DNA of 64,000 bases from Escherichia phage vB_EcoM_G8 (NC_054915.1), one strand, 5' to 3'; numbered from the stretch's first letter, positions 3,455 to 64,000 are shown. Made by a program: numbers and translations. The notes: generated from the letters alone by a model not told the origin.

Positions 3455-3455
3455 A

Positions 3456-4028: not shown

Positions 4029-4035
4029 AATGAAT

Positions 4036-4049: not shown

Positions 4050-4060
4050 ATCCTGCTTAA

Positions 4061-5685
<1,625 letters not shown>

Positions 5686-5686
<1 letters not shown>

Positions 5687-6988: not shown

Positions 6989-6991
6989 ATA
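6984..6991 (+). promoter_or_regulatory. late promoter TATAAATA (gene 22)
   Basis: Exact motif overlapping gene 21 stop. Confidence 0.65.
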
Positions 6992-7018
6992 TTATTATCT
7001 AAACAACAGGACTACAAA

Positions 7019-7828: not shown

Positions 7829-7846
7829 TTTTAAAGGTTAACACAA

Positions 7847-9412: not shown

Positions 9413-9427
9413 TCTTTGACGATTTAA

Positions 9428-9456
9428 GGGACCTTCGGGTCCCTTTAGTTGTTTTT
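9428..9456 (+). terminator. intrinsic terminator after gene 23
   Basis: GGGACC-TTCG-GGTCCC followed by TTTAGTTGTTTTT. Confidence 0.7.
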
Positions 9457-9460
9457 ATGG

Positions 9461-9468
9461 TATAAATA
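9461..9468 (+). promoter_or_regulatory. late promoter TATAAATA (gene 24)
   Basis: Exact motif between gene 23 terminator and gene 24. Confidence 0.7.
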
Positions 9469-9495
9469 AATCATATAAACCAAAAGGAAAGCGCA

Positions 9496-10779
9496 ATGGC
9501 TAAAATCAACGAACTTCTGCGCGAATCAACCACAACGAATAGCAACTCAATCGGTCGCCCAAATCTCGTTGCTTTGACTCGCGCTACCACTAAATTAATA
9601 TATTCTGACATTGTAGCAACGCAAAGAACTAATCAACCTGTTGCTGCTTTTTATGGTATCAAATACCTTAATCCAGACAATGAATTTACATTTAAAACTG
9701 GTGCTACTTATGCTGGCGAAGCTGGATATGTAGACCGAGAACAAATCACAGAATTAACAGAAGAGTCTAAATTAACTCTCAATAAAGGCGATTTATTCAA
9801 ATATAATAATATCGTTTATAAAGTATTAGAAGATACACCATTTGCTGATATTGAAGAAAGCGATTTAGAATTGGCTCTTCAGATTGCAATTGTTCTTTTA
9901 AAGGTTCGTCTATTTTCTGACGCAGCGTCAACAAGCAAATTTGAAAGCTCTGATAGTGAAATTGCGGATGCTAGATTCCAGATTAATAAATGGCAAACCG
10001 CAGTTAAATCTCGCAAACTTAAAACTGGTATCACAGTTGAATTAGCACAAGATTTAGAAGCAAATGGATTCGATGCTCCTAATTTCTTGGAAGATTTGCT
10101 TGCAACTGAAATGGCAGATGAAATCAATAAAGATATTCTGCAGTCTTTGATTACAGTATCAAAACGTTATAAAGTTACAGGAATTACTGATACTGGATTC
10201 ATTGATTTGAGTTATGCATCTGCACCTGAAGCTGGTCGTTCATTATACCGAATGGTATGTGAAATGGTTTCGCATATCCAAAAAGAATCAACTTATACAG
10301 CAACGTTCTGTGTTGCTTCTGCTCGTGCCGCCGCGATTCTTGCTGCATCAGGTTGGTTAAAACATAAACCAGAAGATGATAAATATCTTTCACAAAATGC
10401 CTATGGGTTTTTAGCTAATGGATTACCTCTTTACTGCGATACCAACAGTCCGTTAGATTATGTTATTGTGGGTGTTGTAGAAAATATCGGCGAAAAAGAA
10501 ATTGTAGGGTCCATCTTTTATGCTCCATACACTGAAGGAGTAGATTTAGATGACCCGGAACATGTCGGTGCATTTAAAGTTGTAGTTGATCCGGAAAGTT
10601 TGCAACCGTCTATCGGTTTATTAGTTAGATATGCTTTATCAGCAAATCCTTATACCGTAGCAAAAGATGAAAAAGAAGCAAGAGTAATTGACGGTGGAGA
10701 CATGGATAAAATGGCGGGTCGTTCAGATTTGTCTGTTTTATTAGGTGTTAAACTACCAAAAATTATCGTTGATGAATAA
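9496..10779 (+). CDS. 24: capsid vertex protein gp24 (gp23 paralog)
   Basis: 427 aa following gene 23 and a late promoter. Confidence 0.9.
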   Translation: MAKINELLRESTTTNSNSIGRPNLVALTRATTKLIYSDIVATQRTNQPVAAFYGIKYLNPDNEFTFKTGATYAGEAGYVDREQITELTEESKLTLNKGDLFKYNNIVYKVLEDTPFADIEESDLELALQIAIVLLKVRLFSDAASTSKFESSDSEIADARFQINKWQTAVKSRKLKTGITVELAQDLEANGFDAPNFLEDLLATEMADEINKDILQSLITVSKRYKVTGITDTGFIDLSYASAPEAGRSLYRMVCEMVSHIQKESTYTATFCVASARAAAILAASGWLKHKPEDDKYLSQNAYGFLANGLPLYCDTNSPLDYVIVGVVENIGEKEIVGSIFYAPYTEGVDLDDPEHVGAFKVVVDPESLQPSIGLLVRYALSANPYTVAKDEKEARVIDGGDMDKMAGRSDLSVLLGVKLPKIIVDE

Positions 10780-10810: not shown

Positions 10811-11813
10811 AACTTACCAACTCAATCCAAGCTGGACGAAGTACATCTTGTACCATTTTAACTAATTCCTTCTTAATCAAAGAAGGATTATCTGCTTGAG
10901 TTAGAGTAATACCTTCACGAGAAGTTTCTTCCAAAATATCTTGAACAGTTAGTCCCATCACCTTTCCAAAATCTTTTGGACCAATTTCGCCAATTTTAGA
11001 AATAACGTTATTTACTCGGTTTAGTGTAACGTAACAAGCTAAAATCCCCACCAATTTGTTATCAGCTTCTGACAGTTCAACTTTAGCTTTAATAGGCTTA
11101 TCAGACTTTTTCTTTTCACTAAATTTAGAATTCTTGCATTTAATTGCTACACGATTGCGATTAGGCAGCCAAGAAGGATAACAAGGTTTCAATACATATC
11201 CTTCAGCGGTAAATACTTCGCCTTTTGCTTCGGCATTCCAAACGCATTTATTTGCATCAACTAATCCAGCATGGTCTACTGTAAAATTATAATCTTGGAC
11301 GACAGAATCTAAATCATTTGGCAATTTAATAAGCTCTTCAAATTTACCGCGACCTAAAAGTGGAGCCATTTTAAATTTAAATGTATTGCAGAATGATTCC
11401 ATCATATAATCGTCGACATAAGTCACATCGCCACTTTCTGTAGTGACAATAATGTCAAATACATAAAAATCTTTATCACCATAATCGACATTCTTCTGAA
11501 TGCCAGGTCCAGCGAATTCGCCAAAGACTTGATAAGATACAACCGCTGAGGTTTCCATAATATCTTGTACTGCTTTAATGGAATCAGCGTAATTCTTTAA
11601 AATAATTTCATACCCAAAGAAATCTTCAGCAGGAAGAATAGGACCAGTACGTTTAGCGCAAGTTACTTTATCACGCTCAATAATCAATGAGAAATTTGTG
11701 CCGTGAATCTTTTCACGAGCTACCCATTCGCCGCCAGTCAATCCCAAGCTATAAAGTTTTTCAATAAATTTAGAGTTGTAATGATTTTCAAGACTGCTAT
11801 ACTTTTTAAACAT
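10809..11813 (-). CDS. rnlB: RNA ligase 2 (Rnl2)
   Basis: 334 aa [20 protein letters not shown]…EKIHGTNFS; nucleotidyltransferase lysine motif KxHG; T4 Rnl2 length. Confidence 0.9.
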
Positions 11814-39493: not shown

Positions 39494-39997
39494 TTAAAAG
39501 TATTTTTTAAAACTCATCATAACTTTATCATCAACATCATTATCAATCTGTGCAACAAGATAGGATGACAGTTCTACTTCTTGTGGCGCGGATTGAACAT
39601 TATCAGAATTAAGATATTCACGAATCCAAGGATATGGATGTTTAACCGGAGCATCGGTAATTGGGCATGGAAGACCACACTGTTTCATACGAGATACAGT
39701 TAAGTAATCAATAAAGCTCCACATGCTATTTGTATTTAATCCAGGAACATCGCCATCTTTAAATAAATGAACTGCCCAATCTTTTTCTTGGCGGTTAACT
39801 TCCATGAAAATATCAACTGCTTCTTGTTCACACTCTTGAGCAATTTTAACCCATTCATCACCATCAGTACCGGATTGAAGTTGACGAATAATATATTGAG
39901 TGCCTTTAAGGTGAAGCTGCTCATCACGTGCAATGAACTTCATAATCTTGGCATTACCTTCCATAATTTCCATGTTCTTATGGAAGTTAAAGGTACC
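39494..39997 (-). CDS. nrdB: ribonucleotide reductase small subunit NrdB, exon 2 (5' boundary approximate)
   Basis: Translation …NMEIMEGNAKIMKFIARDEQLHL… matches NrdB C-terminal half; boundary by alignment to E. coli NrdB spacing, +/- few nt. Confidence 0.8.
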   Translation of the reverse strand, partial: GTFNFHKNMEIMEGNAKIMKFIARDEQLHLKGTQYIIRQLQSGTDGDEWVKIAQECEQEAVDIFMEVNRQEKDWAVHLFKDGDVPGLNTNSMWSFIDYLTVSRMKQCGLPCPITDAPVKHPYPWIREYLNSDNVQSAPQEVELSSYLVAQIDNDVDDKVMMSFKKYF

Positions 39998-40592
39998 GTT
40001 ATGTTCGATTGAGCTCGCTAATTCTCAACCCGTTCTCTTATGAACTGCTACATATTACTATGCAGACCAGACTATATCACAATCCCAGAGGGATTCTCCC
40101 CATTTCGAGTCGCTTGACTCTACGTCCGAAGACTAGTCGTTGAACCTTGCTTTGCAATTGTCGCCGTGCCATCGTTTATATGTTGATGGTGATAAATCTT
40201 TCTTATCACAATATGGACAATTCAATTGAATTCTATTTGGATTTAATTTACATCTGTCATTATGTTTTAGATAAAATCCAGGACCTTTACCAATGTGACC
40301 ACAGAAATCACATGTGATTTCTTTTTGTGCAGGATGGGTCCCGTTCTTAACCATTTCTAATGTTTTTGCTGATGTTCTTTTCTTATGGTCTTCCATCAGA
40401 ATCTTTAGGTAGGTCCGTCAGCATCTATCCAAATTTTTCTATAGTTCAATTGTGCATCCTCTTAAAAGTATAATCATATTATACCAATTAAAGGTGCAAG
40501 CAAAACCTTGGCTGCTAGTTTTCCTATAAAGGACTTTCCAGCAATTAAAGGAGTTTTCGATAAACGTTACCGTTTAAAGGCGCATTTTACGC
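39998..40592 (-). mobile_element. group I intron in nrdB with truncated endonuclease ORF (boundaries approximate)
   Basis: nrdB frame interrupted after RFYVSF and resumes ~595 nt downstream; contains 87-aa Cys-rich ORF. Confidence 0.75.
40133..40396 (-). CDS. truncated intron-encoded endonuclease remnant (I-TevIII-like)
   Basis: 87 aa ORF inside nrdB intron; Cys-rich ITCDFCGHIGKG…NCPYCDKK, no complete catalytic domain. Confidence 0.6.
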   Translation of the reverse strand: MEDHKKRTSAKTLEMVKNGTHPAQKEITCDFCGHIGKGPGFYLKHNDRCKLNPNRIQLNCPYCDKKDLSPSTYKRWHGDNCKARFND

Positions 40593-41264
40593 AAAAGATA
40601 CATAAAAACGAATAGCTTCTAAGGCATTAATAACGTGCAAACAGAGGTAAAGAGATTTCATTAAAGCACGTTTAGCTTCGGCTTCTTGCTTAATAGCCCG
40701 GTTTAAACGAAAGTCGGCATCAGGAGATTCTTTAGCTAGTTCTACAAATTCTTTAGCATTTTCCCATTCACGGGTTTTAGTTAAAACATCATCATAATAG
40801 CGACCGATAGATTCAGCACGTTTCATAATAGCTTCATCTAATACAATCTCATCAAATACCTTTGACGGATCAGTATAAAGATTTCGCATGATATGAGTAT
40901 ATGAACGACTGTGAATAGTTTCACTAAAAGTCCATGTAGCAACCCATGTATCAAGGCTTGGGTCTGAAAGCAATGGCATAAGTACAGCAGACGGCGCACG
41001 ACCTTGAATACTATCAAGTAATGATTGATACTTCAGATTATTAGTAAAAATATTTTGTTGATACTGAGGAAGCTTATTAAACTGTGCAGCATCCATCATC
41101 AAGTTTACTTCTTCCGGACGCCAGAAAAACGAGAGCGAACGTTCAATAAGTTCTTCAAATACTCGATGCCGTTGAATATCATAACGCGCAATACCAAGAC
41201 CTGAACCAAAAAACATAGGTTCTTTTAAAACATCGACCTGTTTAGTATTAAAAACTGTACTCAT
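40593..41264 (-). CDS. nrdB: ribonucleotide reductase small subunit NrdB, exon 1 (3' boundary approximate)
   Basis: MSTVFNTKQVDVLKEPMFFGS…EAIRFYVSF then in-frame stop inside intron. Confidence 0.8.
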
Positions 41265-42856
41265 TATTTTGTCCTGTAAACTAAATTTCCACAGTCCCAG
41301 ATTCTTCTAAGACCATTTGCATAACAATTTTCTACTTCAGTTATTGTATCATCATAATTTTTAAGCTTGTTTTTAAGCTTATGTTTCATATAGCTTGAGC
41401 GGTGAAATACCTCTCCTTTATCGACGTACCAATAACATGGCTCAGAGATATGACTAAATTCCATGACAGAGTCATAAACATTTGATAATGTACTGCACCA
41501 TCTTCGATTGCCATAAGATAGACAATTAATTCCTTTTAATAATTTTGAGGCTCCTCCTACAACGCAAACCCCTAATTTTGAACACATCCTTAAAAGTTCA
41601 TCACCCGAGCTATATCTAGATTTACCGATAGAAATAATTTGAACTAACTCATTATTGTAATAAAGTCCTTTATACGTATGAGCTCCTGAGCAAAATCCTT
41701 GAAGATGATTCTTATTAATAAATTCTTTTGCCTCATCCTTATTAACAAAACGCGCTTTGCATTTTCGGGCTGGTATTCTTTCTGATAATCCTAATTTATG
41801 CTTTATAATGGATTTCCAGATCTCTCTTTTTGTATCATCAATCCATTCATTTTCGAAGATGTGAAGTAATTGAATTCCTTGTGCTTCACACATCTCTGTC
41901 TTCATCAAATGATAAGTTTCTTTAATTTTATCTGTTTCCTTTGACCCGCTAGAATGCCAATAAATTCCATCGTATTCTATAGCCAATTTTTTCTCAGGAA
42001 TGTAAATATCTAATTCATACGGAGGAATAATTTTTCTAGTTTCTACGCAATCAAATCCTAGATCTAAAATGAATTGCTCTATAGAACTTTGAGTATAATG
42101 AACGTCAATTAGTCCTTTGGATGAAAGAGCTCTATAAGCCGTCATCCGAGAACAATTTGCTAATTGTTGTAGTTCTTCTATAGAAATTTTGTAATTGATT
42201 TTATCTAGTATATCATGATTAATATGACCGTTATTTTTAATAGATTTTCCTATAGATGAATATAACGATGCCTTATATTCTTCAGTCCAATTTAATTTAG
42301 TCTTCTTAGATTTTTCGCGAGATTTTCTAGAATTCAGAATATCAACTGATTTACCGTTTTCTATAACTTTTCTCGCTTCTTTCACGCTTTCTAATTGTGA
42401 ATTATGCGTTACCCCATATCGTTCAATTAAAGTTTTTCTATTTTTATTTCTTGAAATTTTTTGATGAGTTGTTCCATATTTTTCTAAATAATTTTTGCGT
42501 TGAAGTTCAGACAAATATTTTTTATATTTTTCTTTTCCGCCAAAATTTGTATCACGGCTTTGAATTCTCTTATCCGCGAAAAATATCCCTGCGCAGGATT
42601 TACTACATGTTGCTGGAAATACACGTTTCTTTGCTGTTTTCAGAGAAATGAAATTTCCACAAACTGCACATTTTAGATCGTTAATGTCAATGCCTTCCAT
42701 AATTTGGAACACATTGAGCTTAAAATCTATTCCATCAGTTAGAAGAGCTTTATCTTCTTCTGTTAGTCTAGATTTAAGTTTTTCTTCTCCAAATGGAAGA
42801 AACTTTCCGTTTTTGTATATATTATCAAACATAGCGTTATTCTTAGTTAACCACAT
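41264..42856 (-). CDS. large multidomain nuclease-like protein (Cys cluster, NUMOD3-like repeats, HTH, Vsr/DUF559-like core, unknown C-terminal domain)
   Basis: 530 aa uninterrupted ORF, ATG 42856; stop overlaps nrdB ATG (TAATG); motifs CAVCG…CSKSC, KYGTTHQKIS / ERYGVTHNSQ, YELDIYIPEKKLAIEYDGIYWH. Confidence 0.8.
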   Translation of the reverse strand: MWLTKNNAMFDNIYKNGKFLPFGEEKLKSRLTEEDKALLTDGIDFKLNVFQIMEGIDINDLKCAVCGNFISLKTAKKRVFPATCSKSCAGIFFADKRIQSRDTNFGGKEKYKKYLSELQRKNYLEKYGTTHQKISRNKNRKTLIERYGVTHNSQLESVKEARKVIENGKSVDILNSRKSREKSKKTKLNWTEEYKASLYSSIGKSIKNNGHINHDILDKINYKISIEELQQLANCSRMTAYRALSSKGLIDVHYTQSSIEQFILDLGFDCVETRKIIPPYELDIYIPEKKLAIEYDGIYWHSSGSKETDKIKETYHLMKTEMCEAQGIQLLHIFENEWIDDTKREIWKSIIKHKLGLSERIPARKCKARFVNKDEAKEFINKNHLQGFCSGAHTYKGLYYNNELVQIISIGKSRYSSGDELLRMCSKLGVCVVGGASKLLKGINCLSYGNRRWCSTLSNVYDSVMEFSHISEPCYWYVDKGEVFHRSSYMKHKLKNKLKNYDDTITEVENCYANGLRRIWDCGNLVYRTK

Positions 42857-45454: not shown

Positions 45455-45671
45455 ATTGTTTTTCCGTTAAAACAGTAATATCATAGTAACAATCAGAAGA
45501 AGTTTTAACTGTAGAAATTTTATTATCAAAATACTCACGAGTCATTTTATGAGTATAATATTTTTTGCCATAAATGATAATAGGCTGTTCTGGTCCTGGA
45601 ACTTCTAACTCGCTTGGATTAGGAAGTGTAAAAAGAACAACACCAGAAGTATCTTTAAATCGTAAAATCAT
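45408..45671 (-). CDS. hypothetical protein
   Basis: 87 aa, start overlaps td stop. Confidence 0.55.
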
Positions 45672-45979
45672 ATTGCCATTTTCCCTTTAATTGCTGGATG
45701 CGATTCATAATTTTCAAGGATAAAATCTTTCGGTTTCATGTATTCAGTTAACCAGTAAAGCTGTGTTTCGGTGTCACAATTTCCAAACTCTATAGGCCAA
45801 TCAATTTTAAGTTCACACAGTTCTTTAGGCTCACGACGTAAAATTTCTTTACATTGCTCAGTATGATTCATATAGATATGAGTATTACCACCGGAAAATA
45901 TCAAATCTCCCGGAATAAGATTACACATCTTAGCCACAATATGCGTCAAGGCAGCGTACGAGGCAATGTTGAATGGTAG
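45668..45979 (-). CDS. td: thymidylate synthase, exon 2
   Basis: [39 protein letters not shown]… (ThyA C-terminal); exon1+exon2 = 286 aa. Confidence 0.9.
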
Positions 45980-46995
45980 CATTATGTTCAGATAAGGTCG
46001 TTAATCTTACCCCGGAATTATATCCAGCTGCATGTCACCATGCAGATCAGACTATATCTCCAACTTGTTAAAGCAAGTTGTCTATCGTTTCGAGTCACTT
46101 GACCCTACTCCCCAAAGGGATAGTCGTTAGGCATTTATGTGGAACCAATTCCATTTATCAGATTTTACACGATAAGTAACTAATCCAGACGAAATTTTAA
46201 AATGTCTAGCTGCATCTGCTGCACAATCAAAAATAACCCCATCACATGAAATCTTTTTAATATTACTAGGCTTTTTACCTTTCATCTTTTCTGATATTTT
46301 AGATTTAGTTATGTCTGAATGCTTATGATTAAAGAATGAATTATTTTCACCTGAACGATTTCTGCATTTACTACAAGTATAAGCAGAAGTTTGTATGCGA
46401 ACACCGCACTTACAAAACTTATGGGTTTCTGGATTCCAACGCCCGTTTTTACTTCCGGGTTTACTGTAAAGAGCTTTCCGACCATCAGGTCCAAGTTTAA
46501 GCATCTTAGCTTTAACAGTTTCAGAACGTTTCTTAATAATTTCTTCTTTTAATGGATGCGTAGAACATGTATCACCAAACGTTGCATCAGCAATATTGTA
46601 TCCATTAATTTTAGAATTAAGCTCTTTAATCCAAAAATTTTCTCGTTCAATAATCAAATCTTTCTCATATGGAATTTCTTCCAAAATAGAACATTCAAAC
46701 ACATTACCATGTTTGTTAAAAGACCTCTGAAGTTTTATAGAAGAATGGCATCCTTTTTCTAAATCTTTAAAATGCCTCTTCCATCTCTTTTCAAAATCTT
46801 TAGCACTTCCTACATATACTTTATTGTTTAAAGTATTTTTAATCTGATAAATTCCGCTTTTCATAAATACCTCTTTAAATATAGAAGTATTTATTAAAGG
46901 GCAGTCCTACAATTTAGCACGGGATTGTCTACTAGAGAGGTTCCCCGTTTAGATAGATTACAAGTATAAGTCACCTTATACTCAGGCCTCAATTA
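45980..46995 (-). mobile_element. group I intron in td carrying I-TevI
   Basis: td reading frame interrupted between …VFLG and LPFNIASY…; 1016-nt intervening segment contains I-TevI ORF. Confidence 0.85.
46127..46864 (-). CDS. intron-encoded GIY-YIG homing endonuclease I-TevI
   Basis: 245 aa MKSGIYQIKNTLNNKVYVGSAKDFEKRWKRH…; lies inside td intron. Confidence 0.93.
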   Translation of the reverse strand: MKSGIYQIKNTLNNKVYVGSAKDFEKRWKRHFKDLEKGCHSSIKLQRSFNKHGNVFECSILEEIPYEKDLIIERENFWIKELNSKINGYNIADATFGDTCSTHPLKEEIIKKRSETVKAKMLKLGPDGRKALYSKPGSKNGRWNPETHKFCKCGVRIQTSAYTCSKCRNRSGENNSFFNHKHSDITKSKISEKMKGKKPSNIKKISCDGVIFDCAADAARHFKISSGLVTYRVKSDKWNWFHINA

Positions 46996-47544
46996 ACCCA
47001 AGAAAACATCTACTGATCGTTGATACCACTGCAAATCCAAATAACCATTACGCACATTAAACTGATAGAACATATGACAGGGCGGTAATGCCATTTGATT
47101 GATTTCAGCTGGATTCCATGCTGAAACGATTTGACGTCGATCAGTTGGTAATTTTTTAATACGATCAATAGTTTCAACTAATTGATCCACACCACCGAAA
47201 TCACGCCATTGTTTACCGTATATAGGACCAAGTTCACCACTATGATATCCTAGGTCTTTAGCCTGGTTTTCATAGTTATCGTCCCAAATAGTTTTACCTT
47301 GAATAAGACTACCATGAGTGCGAAGACGTAAATCATTAACATTGGTAGAACCGGAAATAAACCATAAAAGCTCAGCAACGCATGCATTCCAGGCGAGCTT
47401 CTTAGTTGTTACTGCAGGAAAACCTTTGGTTAAATCCCAACGCAATTTAGTACCGAACAGAGCAATTGTTCCTGTGCCCGTTCGGTCATCGGTTTCATAG
47501 CCATTTTCAAAAATGTCTTTAATTAAATCTTGGTATTGTTTCAT
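46996..47544 (-). CDS. td: thymidylate synthase, exon 1
   Basis: MKQYQDLIKDIFENGYETDDRTGTGT…QWYQRSVDVFLG; in-frame stop follows inside intron. Confidence 0.9.
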
Positions 47545-51107: not shown

Positions 51108-51740
51108 TCATAGCTGGCATAATTCGCAATACTCTGGGTCTTCGAGAGGTATCCAACCTGAGTTGAAATACTTTACCATCGATTTAGCAGTTGTATCAGT
51201 TATATTTATATTACCTTTAACTCTTCGCCATCCAGGAGTTTTACCGTACAGATTAGAGGATAATAATAACACATAATTCTCGTAAGCAATATGAGATAAT
51301 TTCCAAGACTCTATATTAGCTCGTGATGTTTTCCAAGGTCTAAAATCGTCACGGTTCATATAATTAGCCAATCTCATATGCTCTCTAACTTCCGGGTCTT
51401 TGGCTGGATGAGTTTCACCACTCACACCAAATCCACCACCAGCATATACCAGATTAAAATAGTCTGGATTATCTCTGGCATTTACTTCAAGTTGGTATTT
51501 TCGTTCTGCTTCAATAACATCCAAGTCATCATCAATTTGAATTATTTTAACGCTCGGTTTTTGAAGCATTAGCGCATTCAAAAATCTTTTTTGTTTACAT
51601 GAGCTCCAGTATTCCTTTCCGGAAGAGTCATATATTATTCCGTTCTCAAATGAGCAATTTAATTTACTACCGATATAGTAGTATGGCGGAGTCTTATTTT
51701 TGACACGGTCTTCAAATGTAAACCAATATACTATATTCAT
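51108..51740 (-). CDS. segG: GIY-YIG homing endonuclease SegG-like
   Basis: 210 aa; N-terminal MNIVYWFTFEDRVKNKTPPYYYIGSK is GIY-x10-YIG-like; sits between 32 and 59. Confidence 0.75.
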   Translation of the reverse strand: MNIVYWFTFEDRVKNKTPPYYYIGSKLNCSFENGIIYDSSGKEYWSSCKQKRFLNALMLQKPSVKIIQIDDDLDVIEAERKYQLEVNARDNPDYFNLVYAGGGFGVSGETHPAKDPEVREHMRLANYMNRDDFRPWKTSRANIESWKLSHIAYENYVLLLSSNLYGKTPGWRRVKGNINITDTTAKSMVKYFNSGWIPLEDPEYCELCQL

Positions 51741-54007: not shown

Positions 54008-57000
54008 ATGGCCGAGATTAAAAGAAAGTTCAGAGCAGAAGATGGTCTGGACGCAGGTGGTGATAAAATAATCAACGTAGCTTTAGCTGATCGTACCGTA
54101 GGAACTGACGGTGTTAACGTTGATTACTTAATTCAAGAAAACACAGTTCAACAATATGATCCAACTCGTGGATATTTAAAAGATTTTGTAATCATTTATG
54201 ATAACCGCTTTTGGGCTGCTATAAATGATATTCCAAAACCAGCAGGAGCTTTTAATAGCGGACGCTGGAGAGCATTACGTACCGATGCTAACTGGATTAC
54301 AGTCTCATCTGGTTCATATCAATTAAAATCTGGTGAAGCTATTTCGGTTAACACTGCAGCTGGTAATGACATCACGTTTACTTTACCATCTTCTCCAATT
54401 GATGGTGATACTATCGTTCTCCAAGATATTGGAGGAAAACCTGGAGTTAACCAAGTTTTAATTGTAGCTCCAGTGCAAAGTATTGTAAACTTTAGAGGTG
54501 AACAGGTACGTTCAGTACTAATGACTCATCCAAAGTCACAGCTAGTTTTAATTTTTAGTAATCGTCTGTGGCAAATGTATGTTGCTGATTATAGTAGAGA
54601 AGCTATAGTTGTAACACCAGCGAATACTTATCAAGCGCAATCCAACGATTTTATCGTACGTAGATTTACTTCTGCTGCACCAATTAATGTTAAACTTCCA
54701 AGATTTGCTAATCATGGCGATATTATTAATTTCGTCGATTTAGATAAACTAAATCCGCTTTATCATACAATTGTTACTACATACGATGAAACGACTTCAA
54801 TACAAGAAGTTGGAACTCATTCCATTGAAGGCCGTACAACAATTGACGGTTTCTTGATGTTTGATGATAATGAGAAATTGTGGAGATTGTTTGACGGGGA
54901 TAGTAAAGCACGTTTACGTATTATAACAACTAATTCTAATATTCGTCCAAATGAAGAAGTTATGGTATTTGGTGCGAATAACGGAACAACCCAAACAATT
55001 GAGCTTCAGCTTCCTACTGATATCTCTGTTGGTGATACTGTTAAAATTTCCATGAATTACATGAGAAAAGGACAAACAGTTAAAATCAAAGCTGCCGGTG
55101 AAGATAAAATTGCTTCTTCAGTTCAATTGCTGCAATTCCCAAAACGTTCAGAATATCCGCCTGAAACTAAATGGGTAACTGTTCAAGAATTAGTTTTTAA
55201 TGGCGAAACTAATTATGTTCCAGTTTTACAACTTGCTTATATAGAAGATTCTGATGGAAAATACTGGGTTGTACAGCAAAACGTTCCAACTGTCGAAAGA
55301 GTAGATTCTTTAAATGATTCTACTAGAGCAAGATTAGGCGTAATTGCTTTAGCTACACAAGCTCAAGCTAATGTCGATTTAGAAAATTCTCCACAAAAAG
55401 AATTAGCAATTACTCCAGAAACGTTAGCTAATCGTACTGCTACAGAAACTCGTAGAGGTATCGCAAGAATAGCAACTACTGCTCAAGTGAATCAGAACAC
55501 CACATTCTCTTTTGCAGATGACCTTATCATTACTCCTAAAAAGCTGAATGAAAGAACTGCTACAGAAACTCGCAGAGGTGTCGCAGAAATTGCTACGCAG
55601 CAAGAAACTAATACAGGTACTGATGATACTACAATCATTACTCCTAAAAAGCTTCAAGCTCGTCAAGGTTCTGAATCATTATCTGGTATTGTAACTTTTG
55701 TATCTACTGCAGGTGCTACTCCAGCTTCTAGCCGTGAATTAAATGGTACAAATGTTTATAATAAAAACACTAATAATTTAGTTGTTTCACCTAAAGCTTT
55801 GGATCAGTATAAAGCTACTCCAACACAGCAAGGTGCAGTAATTTTAGCAGTTGAAAGTGAAGTAATTGCTGGACAAAGTCAGCAAGGATGGGCAAATGCT
55901 GTTGTAACGCCAGAAACGTTACATAAAAAGACATCAACTGATGGAAGAATTGGTTTAATTGAAATTGCTACGCAAAGTGAAGTTAATACAGGAACTGATT
56001 ATACTCGTGCAGTCACTCCTAAAACTTTAAATGACCGTAGAGCAACTGAAAGTTTAAGTGGTATAGCTGAAATTGCTACACAAGTTGAATTCGACGCAGG
56101 CGTCGACGATACTCGTATCTCTACACCATTAAAAATTAAAACTAGATTTAATAGTACTGATCGTACTTCTGTTGTTGCTCTATCTGGATTAGTTGAATCA
56201 GGAACTCTCTGGGACCATTATACACTTAATATTCTTGAAGCAAATGAGACACAGCGTGGTACACTTCGTGTAGCTACACAGGTCGAAGCTGCTGCAGGAA
56301 CATTAGATAATGTTTTAATAACTCCTAAAAAGCTTTTAGGTATTAAATCTACTGAATCGCAAGAAGGTGTTATTAAAGTTGCAACTCAGTCTGAAACTGT
56401 GACTGGAACATCAGCAAATACTGCTGTATCTCCAAAAAATTTAAAATGGATTGTGCAGAGTGAACCTACCTGGGCAGCTACTACTGCGATAAGAGGTTTT
56501 GTTAAAACTTCATCTGGTTCAATTACGTTCGTTGGTAATGATACGGTAGGTTCAACACAGCCATTAGAATCATATGAGAAAAATAGCTATGCAGTATCAC
56601 CATATGAATTAAACCGTGTATTAGCAAATTATCTGCCGTTAAAAGCAAAAGCTGTAGATAGTAATTTATTGGATGGTCTAGATTCATCTCAGTTCATTCG
56701 TAGGGACATTGCGCAGACAGTTAATGGTTCACTAACCTTAACCCAACAAACGAATCTGAGTGCCCCTCTTGTATCATCTAGTACCGGTGAATTTGGTGGT
56801 TCATTGGCCGCTAATAGAACATTTACCATCCGTAATACAGGAGCCCCGACCAGTATCGTTTTCGAAAAAGGTCCTGCATCTGGGGCAAATCCTGCACAGT
56901 CAATGAGTATTCGTGTATGGGGTAACCAATTTGGCGGCGGTAGTGATACGACTCGTTCGACAGTGTTTGAAGTTGGCGATGAAACATCTCATCACTTTTA

Positions 57001-57877
57001 TTCTCAACGTAATAAAGACGGTAATATAGCGTTTAGCATTAATGGTACTGTAATGCCAATAAATGTTAATGCTTCCGGTTTGATGAATGTGAATGGCACT
57101 GCAACATTCGGTCGTTCAGTTACAGCCAATGGTGAATTCATCAGCAAGTCTGCAAATGCTTTTAGAGCAATAAACGGTGATTACGGATTCTTTATTCGTA
57201 ATGATGCCTCTAATACCTATTTTTTGCTCACTGCAGCCGGTGATCAGACTGGTGGTTTTAATAGATTACGCCCATTATTAATTAATAATCAATCCGGTCA
57301 GATTACAATTGGTGAAGGCTTAATCATTGCCAAAGGTGTTACTATAAATTCAGGCGGTTTAACTGTTAACTCGAGAATTCGTTCTCAGGGTACTAAAACA
57401 TCTGATTTATATACTCGTGCGCCAACATCTGATACTGTAGGATTCTGGTCAATCGATATTAACGATTCAGCCACTTATAACCAGTTCCCAGGTTATTTTA
57501 AAATGGTTGAAAAAACTAATGAAGTGACTGGGCTTCCATACTTAGAACGTGGCGAAGAAGTTAAATCTCCTGGTACATTGACTCAGTTTGGTAACACACT
57601 TGATTCGCTTTACCAAGATTGGATTACTTATCCAACGACGCCAGAAGCGCGTACCACTCGCTGGACACGTACATGGCAGAAAACCAAAAACTCTTGGTCA
57701 AGTTTTGTTCAGGTATTTGATGGAGGTAACCCTCCTCAACCATCTGATATTGGTGCTTTACCATCTGATAATGCTACAATGGGCAATCTTACTATTCGTG
57801 ATTTCTTGCGAATTGGTAATGTTCGCATTGTTCCTGACCCAGTGAATAAAACAGTTAAATTTGAATGGGTTGAATAA
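54008..57877 (+). CDS. 34: long tail fibre proximal subunit gp34
   Basis: 1289 aa; internal ~40-aa repeats (TATETRRG.A.IAT…TPKKL); late promoter upstream. Confidence 0.93.
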   Translation: MAEIKRKFRAEDGLDAGGDKIINVALADRTVGTDGVNVDYLIQENTVQQYDPTRGYLKDFVIIYDNRFWAAINDIPKPAGAFNSGRWRALRTDANWITVSSGSYQLKSGEAISVNTAAGNDITFTLPSSPIDGDTIVLQDIGGKPGVNQVLIVAPVQSIVNFRGEQVRSVLMTHPKSQLVLIFSNRLWQMYVADYSREAIVVTPANTYQAQSNDFIVRRFTSAAPINVKLPRFANHGDIINFVDLDKLNPLYHTIVTTYDETTSIQEVGTHSIEGRTTIDGFLMFDDNEKLWRLFDGDSKARLRIITTNSNIRPNEEVMVFGANNGTTQTIELQLPTDISVGDTVKISMNYMRKGQTVKIKAAGEDKIASSVQLLQFPKRSEYPPETKWVTVQELVFNGETNYVPVLQLAYIEDSDGKYWVVQQNVPTVERVDSLNDSTRARLGVIALATQAQANVDLENSPQKELAITPETLANRTATETRRGIARIATTAQVNQNTTFSFADDLIITPKKLNERTATETRRGVAEIATQQETNTGTDDTTIITPKKLQARQGSESLSGIVTFVSTAGATPASSRELNGTNVYNKNTNNLVVSPKALDQYKATPTQQGAVILAVESEVIAGQSQQGWANAVVTPETLHKKTSTDGRIGLIEIATQSEVNTGTDYTRAVTPKTLNDRRATESLSGIAEIATQVEFDAGVDDTRISTPLKIKTRFNSTDRTSVVALSGLVESGTLWDHYTLNILEANETQRGTLRVATQVEAAAGTLDNVLITPKKLLGIKSTESQEGVIKVATQSETVTGTSANTAVSPKNLKWIVQSEPTWAATTAIRGFVKTSSGSITFVGNDTVGSTQPLESYEKNSYAVSPYELNRVLANYLPLKAKAVDSNLLDGLDSSQFIRRDIAQTVNGSLTLTQQTNLSAPLVSSSTGEFGGSLAANRTFTIRNTGAPTSIVFEKGPASGANPAQSMSIRVWGNQFGGGSDTTRSTVFEVGDETSHHFYSQRNKDGNIAFSINGTVMPINVNASGLMNVNGTATFGRSVTANGEFISKSANAFRAINGDYGFFIRNDASNTYFLLTAAGDQTGGFNRLRPLLINNQSGQITIGEGLIIAKGVTINSGGLTVNSRIRSQGTKTSDLYTRAPTSDTVGFWSIDINDSATYNQFPGYFKMVEKTNEVTGLPYLERGEEVKSPGTLTQFGNTLDSLYQDWITYPTTPEARTTRWTRTWQKTKNSWSSFVQVFDGGNPPQPSDIGALPSDNATMGNLTIRDFLRIGNVRIVPDPVNKTVKFEWVE

Positions 57878-59032: not shown

Positions 59033-59040
59033 TATAAATA
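59033..59040 (+). promoter_or_regulatory. late promoter TATAAATA (gene 36)
   Basis: Exact motif between gene 35 terminator and gene 36. Confidence 0.7.
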
Positions 59041-59063: not shown

Positions 59064-59729
59064 ATGGCTGATTTAAAAGTAGGTTCAACAACCGGAGGCT
59101 CTGTCATTTGGCATCAAGGAAATTTTCCATTGAATCCAGCCGGTGACGATGTACTCTATAAATCATTTAAAATATATTCAGAATATAATAAACCACAAGC
59201 TGCTGATAACGATTTCGTTTCTAAAGCTAATGGTGGTACTTATGCATCAAAGGTAACATTTAACGGCGGTGTTCAAATACCATATGCTATAAACAATACA
59301 AATCAATCTGGTATTTATCCTGGTAATGGAGATGCAGCTACTTTTGTTACAGCAAATATTGATATTGTTTCATGGTATGGTATTGGTTTTAAATCATCAC
59401 AGGGTTCAGCAGCCAGAACTGTAGTAATCAATACACGTAATGGTGATATTAGTACAAAAGGTGTTGTATCCGCTGCAGGTCAAGTAAGAAGTGATGCGGC
59501 TGCTCCTATAGCAGCGAATGACCTTACTAGAAAGGACTATGTTGATGGAGCAATAAATACTGTTACTGCAAATGCGAACTCTAGGGTGCTACGGTCTGGT
59601 GACACCATGACAGGTAATTTAACGGCGCCAAACTTTTTCTCGCAGAATCCTGCATCTCAACCTTCACACGTTCCACGATTTGACCAAATCGTAATTAAGG
59701 ATTCTGTTCAAGATTTCGGCTATTATTAA
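59064..59729 (+). CDS. 36: long tail fibre distal connector gp36
   Basis: 221 aa, late promoter and terminator upstream. Confidence 0.88.
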   Translation: MADLKVGSTTGGSVIWHQGNFPLNPAGDDVLYKSFKIYSEYNKPQAADNDFVSKANGGTYASKVTFNGGVQIPYAINNTNQSGIYPGNGDAATFVTANIDIVSWYGIGFKSSQGSAARTVVINTRNGDISTKGVVSAAGQVRSDAAAPIAANDLTRKDYVDGAINTVTANANSRVLRSGDTMTGNLTAPNFFSQNPASQPSHVPRFDQIVIKDSVQDFGYY

Positions 59730-59737: not shown

Positions 59738-62700
59738 ATGGCTACTTTAAAACAAATACAATTTAAAAGAAGCAAAATCGCAGGTGCACGTCCTGCTGAT
59801 TCAGTATTAGCCGAAGGTGAATTGGCTATAAACTTAAAAGATAGAACACTTTTTACTAAAGATGATTCAGGAAATATCATCGATTTGAGCATTTCTGCTG
59901 GTGGTAATATCAGTGGAAATATCACTCAAACTGGTAATTATTTACAAAATGGAACATATAATCTTAATGGAAACCAGTTTGTTTATGCAGGAAGATATAT
60001 TGAATTTTTACCTAAAACAGCTGGTAATGGCGCTTGGGCAAATCAACACCTAAATAAAGCTCCTATCTTTACAGATTTAAGTTCAGCTACTTCTGTTTCA
60101 GAATACCATCCGTTGATTAAACAACGCTATAAAGATGGAACTTTTTCATTAGGTACTTTAGTTTCTGAAGGTTCATTAAAATTCCATTACATTAATGAGG
60201 CAGGTGAATCTAAATATTGGACGTTTGCGCGCTCAGGTAATTTTCAAGTTGATTCTGGTAATTTATTAGTATCTGGTGGGTATTTAGTCGCTCATAGTAA
60301 TATTGAAACAAGAACAGGTTCTTTGATTGGTCCATCTGTTATAACTAAAAATATTTCATTTGATACAAAAGCATTCGGACAGTATGATTCACAGTCATTA
60401 GTTCAATATGTTTATCCTGGAACAGGTGAAGAAAATGGTATAAACTATCTTCGTAAAGTTCGAGCTAAATCAGGTGGAACCATTTACCATGAAATCGCTT
60501 CAGCTCAAACTGGTAAGAATGATGAAATTTCTTGGTGGACAGGAAATATACCTACTACTAAATTAATGGGTCTTCGTAATGATGGAGCAATGGTATTACG
60601 TCGTTCGCTTGCTATTGGCACAATTACCACTGACGAAAATACTAACAACTATGGCTCTCCTACTCCAATGGGAGAAAGATATATTGCTTTGGGCGATGCT
60701 GCCACTGGTTTAAAATACATTAAGCAGGGTGTTTATGATTTAGTAGGTAATTGGAATTCTGTTGCTTCTATTACTCCTGACAGTTTCCGTAGTACTCGTA
60801 AAGCATTATTTGGACGTTCAGAAGACCAAGGCGGAACCTGGACAATGCCTGGAACGAACGCTGCTCTCTTGTCTGTTCAAACTCAGGCAGATGTGAATAA
60901 CGCAGGCGATGGTCAAACCCACATTGGATATAATTCTGGCGGTAAATTTTCCCATTATTTCCGCGGTAAAGGCCAAACCAACATTAATACACAAGAAGGT
61001 ATGGAAGTTAACCCTGGTATTTTGAAATTGGTAACTGGTTCTAATAATGTACAGTTTTATGCTAACGGAACAGTATCTTCAATACAAAGAATTAAATTTG
61101 ATAATGGATTAGTTCTTACTGGTGCTAGACCCGATGGTATTCAACTTGACGCTCCTACAACAACAGATGGCACTAAAACTATACTGTGGGCTGGTGGTAC
61201 TCGCCCAGGTCAGAATAAAAGTTATGTATCTATCAAAGCATGGGGTAATGCCTTTAACGCATCTGGCGATCGTTCCCGTGAAACAGTTTTTGAGGTAGGT
61301 GATGGGCAAGGTTACCATTTTTATTCTCAACGTGTAGCTCCTGCGCCTGGTTCGACTGTCGGGCCTATTCAACTTCGAGTTAATGGTGGTTTATTGACTT
61401 CAGGTAGTATTGTTGCTTCTGGTTCTATTACAACCGAATCTTCTTTGAGTGTTAATAACGGCATGTCAGTAAACGGCCAAGTTAAAATCGGCGGAACGGC
61501 AGATAATTTCCGTATCTGGAACTCTCGTTATGGTGCCATTTTCCGTCGCTCCGAAACATCATTATATATTATCCCAACTAATGAAAATGAAGGGGAAAAC
61601 GGTGCAATAAGCAACCTTCGTCCGTTTAGTATTGAGTTAGGCACCGGCTCTGTTGTAATGGGAAACCATACTCAAGCGGGTAAAAACCTTTTCACGGTTG
61701 ATAACGTTTCTAAATTAGTACAAACTGATGTTCGTTTCCGTGTTAACATGGATTCCGACGGTATTGTTTTGAATGCTTCTTCTCAAGCAGCGTCTAACTT
61801 TATCCAAGGACGTAAAGCGGATGTTACAAAATGGTATCTCGGTATTGGCGACGGTGGTAACGTTGTTCGTTTACATAACTATACTTATTCCCACGGTATT
61901 GCATTAAACTCTGATACTGTAGATATTACTAAGCCTCTTAAAATTAATAATATTCGAATTGGTACAGATGGCAACATCACAGGTGGTACTGATAATTTTG
62001 CCAATTTAAATACAACGTTAAACAATAAAGTCAATGTTGGTGGTTGGTCAGGCGGAGCTACAACTGGGTGGTATAAGTTTGCGACAGTTAATATTCCTCA
62101 ATCTACTGGAACAGTATCATTTAAAATATATGGTGGTTCAGGATTTAATTTTAAAAGATATGGGCAAGCTTCTGTCGCAGAAATAATTCTTAGAACTGGA
62201 AATAATCCTAAAGGACTTAATGCCACACTATGGAACAGAACTTCTGAAGCATTTTCACAAATTGCCACAGTTAACACGAGCAATGATACATATGACGTTT
62301 ATGTTTATGTGGGAGGATATTCAAATGCTTTAGTCATCGAATATTCATGCACCAGTAATAGTACAGTAACCGTAGTCGGTCTTAACGGAGGAATTCAACC
62401 TATTGTTGAAACACTTCCAGAAGGTCATGTAGTAGGTAAAACTGTAAGATTATTGAATAACATCGATGGAATGTTTGCTGCTGGCGAATCTGATGTTGTT
62501 ACTCGTGGTGAATTTGTTACCAATAACCAAAAAGGTTTACGTATTAAATCTAGAGGTAATGATATTGATTCGAATGCTGCTATCATTCGAAATGATGGTG
62601 GAAGTTTTTATATTTTAGCTACAGACAAGAATACGTCAGAAAAACCCAATGCGGCTAGTGGTGATTGGAATAATTTAAGACCTTTCTCCATTAATATGGC

Positions 62701-63628
62701 TGATGGTCGCGTTGGTATGAACCATGGTCTAAATATTACCGGCGGTGGCTTGAATGTTACTGGTGGCTTGAATGTTACTAGTGGTAATACTAGTTTAGGT
62801 AATATCTCGTCTCGTGTAGTAGCAGGTTGGCGAGGAGCGTCTGGTTGGGCTGATAACTCGGATACAATGAAATCTAAAATCACCTTTATGGCAGACCATG
62901 GGGATTTATCTAATTCAGGCAGTTATTATCCTATTGTAGGTGCATACAGTAACTACGGCTCGGCGGGTTATCGTCAAACCTTTGAGTTCGGATGGGTCGG
63001 TTCCGGCACTACAGCGGGTTGGCGCGATGGTATTATTCGTATTCGCGGAGATAATGCTAATGGCCAGCAAGCAAGATGGCGCTTTACAATGGACGGTACT
63101 TTAGATTGCCCTGGTAAAGTACTGCTACCACAAACAGGTGCCTTTGGTGTCAATACATCAAATGGTCTCGGTGGAAATAGTATAACATTTGGTGATAGCG
63201 ATACCGGTATTAAGCAAAATGGCGATGGATTATTAGACATATATGCGAACAATGTGCAAGTGTTCCGTTTCCAAAATGGTGATTTGTACTCATATAAAAA
63301 TATAAATGCTCCAAACGTTTATATTCGTTCTGATATTCGTTTAAAATCCAACTTTAAGCCTATCGAAAATGCACTTGATAAAGTTGAAAAACTTAACGGT
63401 GTCATTTACGATAAAGCTGAATACATCGGTGGAGAGGCAATTGAAACTGAAGCGGGTATTGTGGCCCAAACGTTACAAGACGTTTTACCAGAAGCTGTCC
63501 GTGAAACAGAAGACAGCAAGGGTAATAAAATACTCACTGTTTCTTCTCAAGCCCAGATTGCTCTTCTGGTTGAAGCTGTGAAAACACTTTCTGCTCGTGT
63601 AAAAGAACTTGAATCTAAACTTATGTAA
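59738..63628 (+). CDS. 37: long tail fibre distal subunit gp37 with C-terminal intramolecular chaperone domain
   Basis: 1296 aa; N-terminus MATLKQIQFKRSKIAGARPAD; C-terminus …YIRSDIRLKSNFKPIENALDKVEKLNGVIYDKAEYIGG… resembles S74-type autoproteolytic chaperone. Confidence 0.9.
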   Translation: MATLKQIQFKRSKIAGARPADSVLAEGELAINLKDRTLFTKDDSGNIIDLSISAGGNISGNITQTGNYLQNGTYNLNGNQFVYAGRYIEFLPKTAGNGAWANQHLNKAPIFTDLSSATSVSEYHPLIKQRYKDGTFSLGTLVSEGSLKFHYINEAGESKYWTFARSGNFQVDSGNLLVSGGYLVAHSNIETRTGSLIGPSVITKNISFDTKAFGQYDSQSLVQYVYPGTGEENGINYLRKVRAKSGGTIYHEIASAQTGKNDEISWWTGNIPTTKLMGLRNDGAMVLRRSLAIGTITTDENTNNYGSPTPMGERYIALGDAATGLKYIKQGVYDLVGNWNSVASITPDSFRSTRKALFGRSEDQGGTWTMPGTNAALLSVQTQADVNNAGDGQTHIGYNSGGKFSHYFRGKGQTNINTQEGMEVNPGILKLVTGSNNVQFYANGTVSSIQRIKFDNGLVLTGARPDGIQLDAPTTTDGTKTILWAGGTRPGQNKSYVSIKAWGNAFNASGDRSRETVFEVGDGQGYHFYSQRVAPAPGSTVGPIQLRVNGGLLTSGSIVASGSITTESSLSVNNGMSVNGQVKIGGTADNFRIWNSRYGAIFRRSETSLYIIPTNENEGENGAISNLRPFSIELGTGSVVMGNHTQAGKNLFTVDNVSKLVQTDVRFRVNMDSDGIVLNASSQAASNFIQGRKADVTKWYLGIGDGGNVVRLHNYTYSHGIALNSDTVDITKPLKINNIRIGTDGNITGGTDNFANLNTTLNNKVNVGGWSGGATTGWYKFATVNIPQSTGTVSFKIYGGSGFNFKRYGQASVAEIILRTGNNPKGLNATLWNRTSEAFSQIATVNTSNDTYDVYVYVGGYSNALVIEYSCTSNSTVTVVGLNGGIQPIVETLPEGHVVGKTVRLLNNIDGMFAAGESDVVTRGEFVTNNQKGLRIKSRGNDIDSNAAIIRNDGGSFYILATDKNTSEKPNAASGDWNNLRPFSINMADGRVGMNHGLNITGGGLNVTGGLNVTSGNTSLGNISSRVVAGWRGASGWADNSDTMKSKITFMADHGDLSNSGSYYPIVGAYSNYGSAGYRQTFEFGWVGSGTTAGWRDGIIRIRGDNANGQQARWRFTMDGTLDCPGKVLLPQTGAFGVNTSNGLGGNSITFGDSDTGIKQNGDGLLDIYANNVQVFRFQNGDLYSYKNINAPNVYIRSDIRLKSNFKPIENALDKVEKLNGVIYDKAEYIGGEAIETEAGIVAQTLQDVLPEAVRETEDSKGNKILTVSSQAQIALLVEAVKTLSARVKELESKLM

Positions 63629-63630
63629 AA

Positions 63631-63646
63631 GAGGGCTTCGGCCCTC
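63631..63646 (+). terminator. UUCG hairpin between genes 37 and 38
   Basis: GAGGGC-TTCG-GCCCTC. Confidence 0.5.
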
Positions 63647-63658
63647 TAAGGATTTTTA

Positions 63659-64000
63659 ATGGCAATTGTAGGTGTTCCTGGCTGGATTGGTGAATCTGCC
63701 GTGAATGAAACTGGACAACGTTGGATGGATGCTGCGATGAGAGCTGTTCGTGTTTCAGTTCCCGGTTGGATGAGTTCAATGGCAGGAAAGTCAGTTGAAA
63801 AAGCTTATTCAATTGGCTCAAATCATTCATATAATAAAGATACTTTAATTAATTGGCTTAAATCAATTGGAACAGCTCCTGCTGTTGTAACAATAACAGG
63901 AGATATTGTTTCTAGTTCTTCAACTATTCCGTGCTTAGATTTTCCTAGTTCATTAACCAATGAATATGTGACATTGATTATTAACTCTGGCGTTACTGTT
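63659..64000 (+). CDS. 38: receptor-recognising adhesin gp38, N-terminal portion (runs off window)
   Basis: MAIVGVPGWIGESAVNETGQRWMDAAMRAV… resembles T2-type gp38 N-terminus; open to window end. Confidence 0.75.
   Translation, partial: MAIVGVPGWIGESAVNETGQRWMDAAMRAVRVSVPGWMSSMAGKSVEKAYSIGSNHSYNKDTLINWLKSIGTAPAVVTITGDIVSSSSTIPCLDFPSSLTNEYVTLIINSGVTV

Follow-up and report, generated by a model that had tools for sequence, protein, structure and literature searches.

A mosaic distal tail-fiber module of T2 type in Escherichia phage vB_EcoM_G8

We conclude that the tail-fiber locus closing the stretch of Escherichia phage vB_EcoM_G8 (G8) analyzed here (64,000 nt of NC_054915.1; the window) is very probably, judged from its sequence, a T2-type distal long-tail-fiber module of Tequatrovirus, with a self-cleaving gp37 and a gp38 adhesin, and that it is a recombinational mosaic. 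It is composed of segments known from other T-even phages and is not a novel design. As a standard T2-type distal long tail fiber, the locus has the commonest arrangement in the phage genus and is already known. The pairing of a gp37 that carries an intramolecular chaperone (IMC) with a gp38 adhesin has been described since the 1980s and is textbook material, and a crystal structure exists (S16, PDB 6F45). The value of the locus is limited to its correct annotation and to a further case of fine-scale mosaicism in a host-range module.

The module adjoins genes of a T4-type backbone, and the following features mark its upstream side:

59033..59040, plus strand: T4 late-promoter motif TATAAATA, 24 nt 5' of gene 36 (exact motif search)
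59064..59729, plus strand: gene 36, distal hinge connector, 221 aa (Pfam Phage_T4_gp36, E 3.5e-43)
59738..63628, plus strand: gene 37, long tail fiber distal subunit of T2 type, 1296 aa plus stop (ORF, Pfam, alignment)
59738..59880, plus strand: conserved 5' end of gene 37 (~aa 1-48), common to T4-type phages (protein and DNA alignments)

ORF calls give 1289 aa for gp34, 371 aa for gp35, and 221 aa for gp36. The earlier note had assigned T4 lengths to all three, which holds for gp34 and gp36; gp35 is 371 aa versus 372 aa in T4. Its lengths for gp37, 1296 aa in G8 and 1026 aa (3081 nt) in T4, were both confirmed. gp34, gp35, and gp36 are identical to the vB_EcoM_G8 proteins, with gp36 an exact match to YP_010069542.1, and an exact look-up of gp36 among public contigs returned no match. 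By exact motif search, TATAAATA occurs at 18 sites in the 64-kb window versus 9.0 expected, with copies directly 5' of genes 34 and 36. Transcription from the late promoter at 59033 likely covers genes 36, 37, and 38, the promoter function being taken over from established T4 biology. A search of the whole 64-kb window against Rfam at gathering thresholds gave no match.

Aligned over its full length, gp37 is 79-80% identical to the gp37 proteins of T2, Lutter, and IsaacDaniel, and over aa 1-50 it shares 94% identity with each of T4, T2, Lutter, and IsaacDaniel. Two trimer-type regions precede the C-terminal chaperone:

61259..61633, plus strand: Gp34_trimer-like domain of gp37, aa 508-632 (Pfam PF21446, E 5.5e-15)
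61760..61984, plus strand: gp37_trimer region, aa 675-749 (Pfam PF20744, E 8.5e-11)
63329..63625, plus strand: Peptidase_S74 / IMC, aa 1198-1296, 99 aa (Pfam PF13884)
63329..63346, plus strand: codons of the putative catalytic dyad, S1198-D-I-R-L-K1203 (direct reading of the sequence)
63329-63331 and 63344-63346, plus strand: codons for Ser1198 and Lys1203, the putative catalytic Ser/Lys dyad

The first of these regions also matched gp34 in PDB entries 4UXE and 5NXF (E ~1e-14) and, by blastp, the phage's own gp34 (32% identity, E 6e-17); on these alignments, aa 508-632 are homologous to the C-terminal region of gp34. Self-blastp of gp37 found no internal repeats at E 0.01, and only the known gp34-like segments appeared.

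That gp37 ends in an S74-family chaperone segment, as the earlier note had proposed, was borne out by both Pfam and structural matches. PF13884 is matched at aa 1198-1255 over profile positions 1-58 of 58 (E 3.5e-15, 56.5 bits versus a cutoff of 22), and aa 1142-1294 match S16 gp37 (6F45_A) at E 1.3e-10 / 1.2e-12. The segment YIRSDIRLKSNFKPIENALDKVEKLNGVIYDKAEYIGG is found in the gp37 translation at aa 1195-1232, overlapping the Peptidase_S74 match, and the IMC starts 99 residues from the end of the protein, C-terminal of the gp37_trimer and Gp34_trimer domains. SDIRLK aligns column for column with SDRRIK of S16 gp37 (6F45_A) and with ADLRAK of MYRF (7DC3), the latter chain reading A at the aligned Ser position; the MYRF ICA domain (7DC3) aligns with the gp37 IMC at E 0.0016. 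For aa 1155-1296, the AlphaFold2 model built from the single sequence (mean pLDDT 56.6, pTM 0.39) was too poor to serve as evidence of fold.

Since Ser1198 and Lys1203 lie within SDIRLK, we predict that the IMC is released by autocleavage at R1197^S1198. Cleavage is expected because the C terminus of T2 gp37, which is 98-100% identical, is reported to be processed (Drexler et al. 1986, via PMC3157838), and because S16 provides a precedent, its gp37 IMC cleaving itself at the published site DLNVS^SDRRIKK (PMC7917993). The gp37 proteins of T2 and T6 are described as undergoing proteolytic cleavage and capping by gp38 (PMC3157838), and the aligned cleavage site of Yersinia fPS phages is DVYIR^SDGRLKI (PMC7917993). 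Alternatively, the S74-like tail could be an inactive relic, with gp37 left uncleaved and gp38 binding elsewhere or acting only as a chaperone. We consider this highly unlikely, as the profile is matched in full with both catalytic residues conserved, and as the last ~300 aa are nearly those of T2 gp37, for which processing is reported. The SDxRxK motif and the 99-aa tail also occur in T2, Lutter, and IsaacDaniel, and this constancy of length in four phages likewise argues against a relic and for an active IMC.

Immediately downstream, the junction with gene 38 is compact:

63630..63647, plus strand: hairpin AGAGGGC-UUCG-GCCCUCU in the 37/38 intergenic spacer (MFE fold and conservation)
63648..63652, plus strand: putative Shine-Dalgarno sequence AAGGA, 6 nt 5' of the gene 38 ATG (sequence)
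63659..64000, plus strand: 5' part of gene 38, 114 codons, cut at the window end (Pfam, PDB, alignments)

The spacer between the two genes is 30 nt long and contains both the hairpin and the Shine-Dalgarno sequence. The case for the hairpin is built on conservation, because its folding energy (MFE -13.4 kcal/mol) is not significant versus shuffles, with a z of only -1.6 for a 56-nt context. The junction is identical at 60/60 nt in T2, Lutter, and IsaacDaniel, and T2 record X04442 labels the hairpin "stem-loop structure; pot. transcription terminator."

The gene 38 ORF opens with the ATG at 63659, begins MAIVGVPGWIGESAVNETGQRW, and continues for 114 codons without a stop up to the window end. 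Its likeness to T2/T6-type gp38 adhesins, also claimed earlier, is well founded: Gp38_N (PF21721) matches aa 1-42 (profile 1-40/40, E 2.1e-19), GP38 (PF05268) matches aa 47-114 (profile positions 1-68 of 218, E 3.2e-22), and aa 8-109 match S16 gp38 (6F45_D) at E 4.6e-19. Over aa 1-114, identity is 100% to Lutter and FJ1, 96.5% to IsaacDaniel, and 73% to T2. W9, W22, and W37 align with tryptophans of S16 gp38 (6F45_D); the role of these tryptophan "prongs" of the gp38 attachment domain has been described (PMC7917993). By these alignments, the ORF from 63659 is assigned as the N-terminal part of the gp38 adhesin, with aa 1-42 as its attachment domain. The Pfam and pairwise matches to gp37 and gp38 are strong and not due to chance.

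The origin of the module is less uniform than its architecture. Backbone homology ends ~140 nt into gene 37, and the DNA alignment to T4, F26, Lv5cm, and RB3 stops in the 59,800-60,000 bin. Past the 5' end of the gene, T2-like and IsaacDaniel-like blocks alternate, so that G8 combines a T2-like proximal shaft and tip/IMC, an IsaacDaniel-like distal shaft, and a Lutter-type gp38. Mismatches to T2 number 0-1 per 40 nt up to ~63,700 and 16-20 thereafter, with Lutter showing the reverse; the switch from T2 to Lutter falls within gene 38 at about 63,700-63,760. A further crossover appears to lie in a conserved island formed by the IMC 3' end, the hairpin, and the gp38 N terminus (~63,500-63,760). 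Because identity to any one relative shifts abruptly and repeatedly, we propose several recombination events in the module, and the pattern suggests approximate breakpoints at ~59,900, 60,400, 61,400-61,800, 62,980, and 63,500-63,760. The alignments show an apparent patchwork of recombination blocks in gene 37 and across the 37/38 junction, not one clean cassette swap.

A candidate segment of gene 37 without relatives was rejected: 59,880-60,420 and 61,400-61,950 both have 85-88% identical DNA, in annotated distal-fiber genes of PhiZZ23, TB004, and SholemSchwarzbard. As even these least-conserved blocks have such relatives, we see nothing foreign in gene 37. A collection of 15 billion proteins has no entry identical to the 1296-aa gp37, the same mosaic was found in no record of the phage collection (vB_EcoM_G8 itself is not among the records), and neither a 40-mer nor a 22-mer probe from gene 37 (~61,640) had an exact match in IMG/VR. 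It is conceivable, though we hold the idea only tentatively, that the recombinant fiber confers a host range unlike that of any donor and that the conserved island is a crossover site at which gp38 is exchanged independently of gp37.

The earlier note had taken the locus to be a swapped host-range cassette. Exchange of cassettes is real, since two of the nearest backbones, F26 and Lv5cm, carry T4-type 37/38 genes (RB3, also close, is of T2 type), but such exchange between cassette types is well documented. The earlier reading needs qualifying on one point: the module is a patchwork, and its type is the majority state. Homologues of the gp38 adhesin occur in 763 phage records and the T4-type chaperone in 297, and the adhesin has been named the predominant form among T4-like phages (Trojet 2011, PMC3157838). 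With the T2-type arrangement being the majority state in the genus, T4 is the odd one out, and to meet this arrangement on a T4-like backbone should therefore not count as unusual. The excess of the adhesin type (>2.5 times as common), its published standing as the predominant form, and the T2-type module of RB3 would fit an ancestral T2-type module inherited vertically without recent swap, only the T4-type phages being recombinant. We give this possibility very little weight: the abrupt changes of identity within gene 37 and where genes 37 and 38 meet point to several recombinations, whichever type is ancestral.

For the mosaic T2-type module that we favor, and that no observation speaks against, we infer cleavage, gp38 docking, and receptor binding in G8 by homology. 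gp37 would trimerize to form the distal half-fiber, folding of the trimer being nucleated by the last 99 residues (the S74-type IMC), which would then cut themselves off between R1197 and S1198 via the Ser1198/Lys1203 dyad and so expose a flat tip ending in NVYIR. The conserved N-terminal domain of gp38 would dock on this tip through W9, W22, and W37, and gp38 would remain on the virion as the adhesin. Its C-terminal polyglycine/hypervariable-loop domain, encoded beyond the window end, is predicted to bind an outer-membrane receptor. Receptors of such adhesins are FadL/OmpF for T2, Tsx for T6, OmpA for Ox2 and K3, and OmpC for S16.

Among known systems, T2 (NC_054931 / X04442; gp37 of 1341 aa, gp38 of 262 aa) has the same order, 36-37-hairpin-38. 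Its gp37 is 79% identical to that of G8 end to end and 98-100% identical over aa 1001-1296, and shares with it the cleavage context YKNINAPNVYIR^SDIRLKSNFKPIEN and the 99-aa IMC; the N-terminal 30 aa of the two gp38 proteins are identical. In contrast, G8 gp37 is 45 aa shorter, and its aa 601-750, with only 16-56% identity to T2, resemble IsaacDaniel and Lutter. The gp37 of IsaacDaniel, a Hafnia phage, is 94-100% identical over aa 751-1296 but only 20-26% identical over aa 51-200, whereas that of Lutter (vB_EcoM_Lutter) aligns over the whole length at 80%, with identity down to 48-70% in several blocks.

T4 has the same locus and neighbors (34-35-36-37-38), and the gp37 N terminus is conserved. 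Its gp34 DNA is 94-100% identical to that of G8 over most of the gene, and this very T4-like backbone, the 94% identity of the first 50 aa of gp37, and the T4-type arrangement of the closest backbones, F26 and Lv5cm, would be in keeping with a T4-type arrangement in G8 as well, in which the gp37 needle tip binds the receptor and the downstream gene encodes an assembly chaperone absent from the virion. However, T4 gp37 (1026 aa) aligns only to aa 1-814 of G8 gp37 (47%), with nothing over the C-terminal ~300 aa, and T4 gp38 (183 aa) has no blastp match to the G8 gp38 fragment even at E 10, whereas the downstream ORF matches adhesin families and 6F45_D. Thus, collinearity with T4 gp37/gp38 is not seen, the probability of a T4-type arrangement is negligible, and the T2-type interpretation stands. 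In T4, gp37 itself supplies the tip that binds the receptor and lacks an S74 domain, and gp38, a chaperone of assembly, is unrelated to G8 gp38.

Both chains of the S16 complex (6F45) are matched in G8, and the SDxRxK dyad and three N-terminal tryptophans are kept. The cleavage residue differs, S16 being cut after Ser (DLNVS^S; PMC7917993) and G8 gp37 predicted to be cut after Arg (NVYIR^S). S16 gp37 is also distant in sequence and shorter, and it has a 113-aa IMC. S74/IMC domains are found elsewhere in the phage K1F endosialidase, the T5 L-shaped fiber protein pb1, and the MYRF ICA domain. Among the 60 matches listed at E up to 10, there was no endosialidase or T5 pb1 chain. With other S74 systems, G8 gp37 has the C-terminal position and the Ser/Lys dyad in common, and it matches PF13884 over the whole profile; the G8 IMC, however, sits on the shaft of a T-even long tail fiber, not on a tailspike or endosialidase.

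The distal tail-fiber module of vB_EcoM_G8, a member of Tequatrovirus, is of the T2 type. The genes involved and the elements beside them are as follows.

53966: late-promoter motif TATAAATA (motif search), just upstream of gene 34
54008 (start): gene 34, ORF of 1289 aa, upstream of gene 37
57886 (start): gene 35, ORF of 371 aa, upstream of gene 37
59033: late-promoter motif TATAAATA (motif search), just upstream of gene 36
59064 (start), plus strand: gene 36, ORF of 221 aa, upstream of gene 37
59738..63628, plus strand: gene 37, ORF of 1296 aa
63630-63647: conserved 7-bp UUCG hairpin; AAGGA and the ATG of gene 38 come next
63659 (ATG, not 63660) to window end, plus strand: gene 38 fragment of 114 open codons, beginning MAIVGVPGWIGESAVNETGQRW...

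In T4, gp34, gp35, gp36, and gp37 have 1289, 372, 221, and 1026 aa and are followed by a gp38 of 183 aa. The earlier note gave genes 34 to 36 T4 lengths, which is correct for gp34 and gp36 but not for gp35 (371 versus 372 aa). Its longer gp37 (1296 versus 1026 aa) is borne out by the ORF list and the T4 annotation, and the S74-type string it quoted is present in the translation (aa 1195-1232, ...YIRSDIRLKSNFKPIENALDKVEKLNGVIYDKAEYIGG...).

The C terminus of gp37, the distal fiber subunit, carries the proposed S74-family intramolecular chaperone (IMC). Peptidase_S74 ("chaperone of endosialidase") is matched over the whole Pfam profile at aa 1198-1255 (E 3.5e-15), and aa 1142-1294 match chain A of PDB 6F45, the gp37-gp38 complex of Salmonella phage S16, in a search against solved structures. 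Pfam also places Gp34_trimer (aa 508-632) and gp37_trimer (aa 675-749) domains in gp37, and Phage_T4_gp36 and gp34 C-terminal domains in the genes upstream. In the C-terminal alignment, SDRRIK of S16 gp37 and a MYRF autoproteolytic-domain motif align with SDIRLK. The published cut in S16 gp37 is at DLNVS^SDRRIKK, and the site in the Yersinia fPS phages reads DVYIR^SDGRLKI (PMC7917993). The window protein reads NVYIR^SDIRLKS, so we predict cleavage at R1197^S1198 (window 63328/63329); Ser1198 and Lys1203 would form the putative dyad, and a domain of 99 aa would be released. The same motif and 99-aa tail occur in gp37 of T2, Escherichia phage vB_EcoM_Lutter, and Hafnia phage IsaacDaniel. The AlphaFold2 model covering the last 142 residues had low confidence.

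The downstream gene encodes a T2/T6-type gp38 adhesin. Its first 114 residues, the part within the window (the specificity domain lies beyond position 64000), match Gp38_N (aa 1-42, E 2.1e-19), GP38 ("phage tail fibre adhesin"; aa 47-114, E 3.2e-22), and 6F45 chain D (E 4.6e-19, solved structures), and W9, W22, and W37 of the attachment domain align with S16 gp38 tryptophans. By analogy with published work on T2 and S16, the IMC would drive trimer folding of gp37 and then cleave itself off, and gp38 would dock on the exposed tip and stay there as the receptor-binding adhesin.

The outcome that the earlier note named as refuting, a gp37 C terminus collinear with that of T4 and a T4-type gp38 chaperone downstream, is not seen. 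T2 gp37 (1341 aa) aligns with the window gp37 end to end (79%), with 98-100% identity in 50-aa bins over aa 1001-1296, whereas the T4 alignment is limited to aa 1-814 (47%), T4 being gapped out of the binned comparison from about aa 1050. Likewise, T2 gp38 is 73% identical over all 114 residues of the fragment (Lutter, 100%; IsaacDaniel, 96.5%), whereas T4 gp38 gives no match even at E 10.

The octamer TATAAATA occurs at 18 sites in the window (9.0 expected; 0 of 100 shuffles reached 18), mostly on the plus strand, shortly before structural genes within 1,400-9,500 and ahead of genes 34 and 36. Between the unrelated genes 37 and 38 of T4 lies a GGGGC-TTCG-GCCC(C) hairpin as well (11623..11650 of T4 sequence L004). 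Together with the hairpin at 63630..63647, this places a similar stem-loop at the 37/38 junction in both fiber types; the stem-loop may serve as a conserved element for regulation or recombination.

The 19.7 kb preceding gene 37 share 94-97% identity with many Tequatrovirus genomes. Among the three such backbones inspected for fiber type, F26 and Lv5cm have T4-type pairs (gp37 of 1023 and 928 aa, respectively, each with a 183-aa gp38), whereas RB3 is of the T2 type (gp37 of 1030 aa and an adhesin of 260 aa). Sliding DNA identity divides the locus as follows.

As far as the 59,800-60,000 bin, some 140 nt inside gene 37: backbone homology; T4, F26, Lv5cm, and RB3 all align and lose their alignment there
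60,400-61,400: T2-like block, 92-96%
61,800-63,000: IsaacDaniel-like block, 92-100%
63,000-63,650: second T2-like block, 95-100%
Gene 38: Lutter/IsaacDaniel-like, 98%

Given this profile and backbones bearing both fiber types, the exchange proposed in the earlier note is real, but as a patchwork of several events and not as one cassette placed into a T4 backbone. The two least-conserved gene 37 blocks have 85-88% identical relatives in annotated distal-fiber genes. No phage record reproduces the whole mosaic (best full-length match, Lutter, 80.7%), and the exact gp37 is absent from a large protein collection. Per 40-nt bin, T2 has 0-3 mismatches over 62,980 to about 63,760 and then 16-20, and Lutter has 8-18 over 63,140 to 63,420 and 0-1 from 63,540 on; all four phages (ours, T2, Lutter, and IsaacDaniel) have the same 60 nt at the 37/38 junction. 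These profiles place the crossover within a nearly identical stretch comprising the IMC 3' end, the intergenic hairpin, and the gp38 attachment-domain coding sequence.

Mosaicism extends beyond gene 37. Gene 34 blocks 54200..54600 and 56800..57200 are 98-100% identical to T4 but just 64-89% to Lv5cm, RB3, T2, and Lutter, and the middle of gene 36 (59200..59500) does not align with F26 or RB3 and shares 70-79% identity with T2 and IsaacDaniel.

A 530-aa ORF (41264..42856, minus strand) lies in the interval from nrdB exon 1 to nrdA, in which RB3 has the 243-aa homing endonuclease mobE. Similar large ORFs occupy this position in F26 (522 aa, annotated as "endonuclease") and in Lv5cm (544 aa, annotated as "hypothetical protein"). 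The sole Pfam match of the window ORF, REase_MTES_1575, is subthreshold (22.2 bits versus a cutoff of 38.2; E 1.5e-4); possibly another mobile endonuclease fills the mobE slot here. The nrdB gene (39494..41264, minus strand) consists of two ORFs with Ribonuc_red_sm matches (39494..39973 and 40587..41264), about 610 bp apart. This gap holds a full-length, subthreshold Rfam group I intron match (about 40048..40288; 33.8 bits versus 50; E 7.9e-6) and no ORF of at least 100 aa, consistent with a degenerate I-TevIII like the one in the Lv5cm annotation. The thymidylate synthase gene td (45668..47544, minus strand) is apparently intron split, its putative exons being assigned by position and by F26, Lv5cm, and RB3 annotation. 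The putative intron carries I-TevI, a homing endonuclease that is intact here (46127..46864), with GIY-YIG, I-TevI zinc finger, and DNA-binding domains; the intron RNA gave no Rfam match at the gathering threshold or at E 0.1. Between genes 32 and 59, the position of segG (a homing endonuclease) in T4 and RB3, a 210-aa ORF (51108..51740, minus strand) has no Pfam match at E 0.001.

Overall, the earlier note's observation of a T2-type distal module in a T4-like backbone is confirmed and its interpretation supported, with the caveat that this arrangement is the norm of the genus and no exception. In tblastn searches the gp38 fragment matched 763 phage records and T4 gp38 matched 297, and the small gp38 of T2/T6, not the T4 version, is the predominant adhesin in T4-type phages (Trojet et al. 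2011, PMC3157838). The gp34, gp35, and gp36 encoded here match those of vB_EcoM_G8 at every residue, and the paper on that phage already notes that near-identical tequatroviruses differ in their gp37- and gp38-like genes (PMC6563267). The T2-type gp37/gp38 module is an already known system, and such shuffling is the established picture for the gene 37/38 locus.
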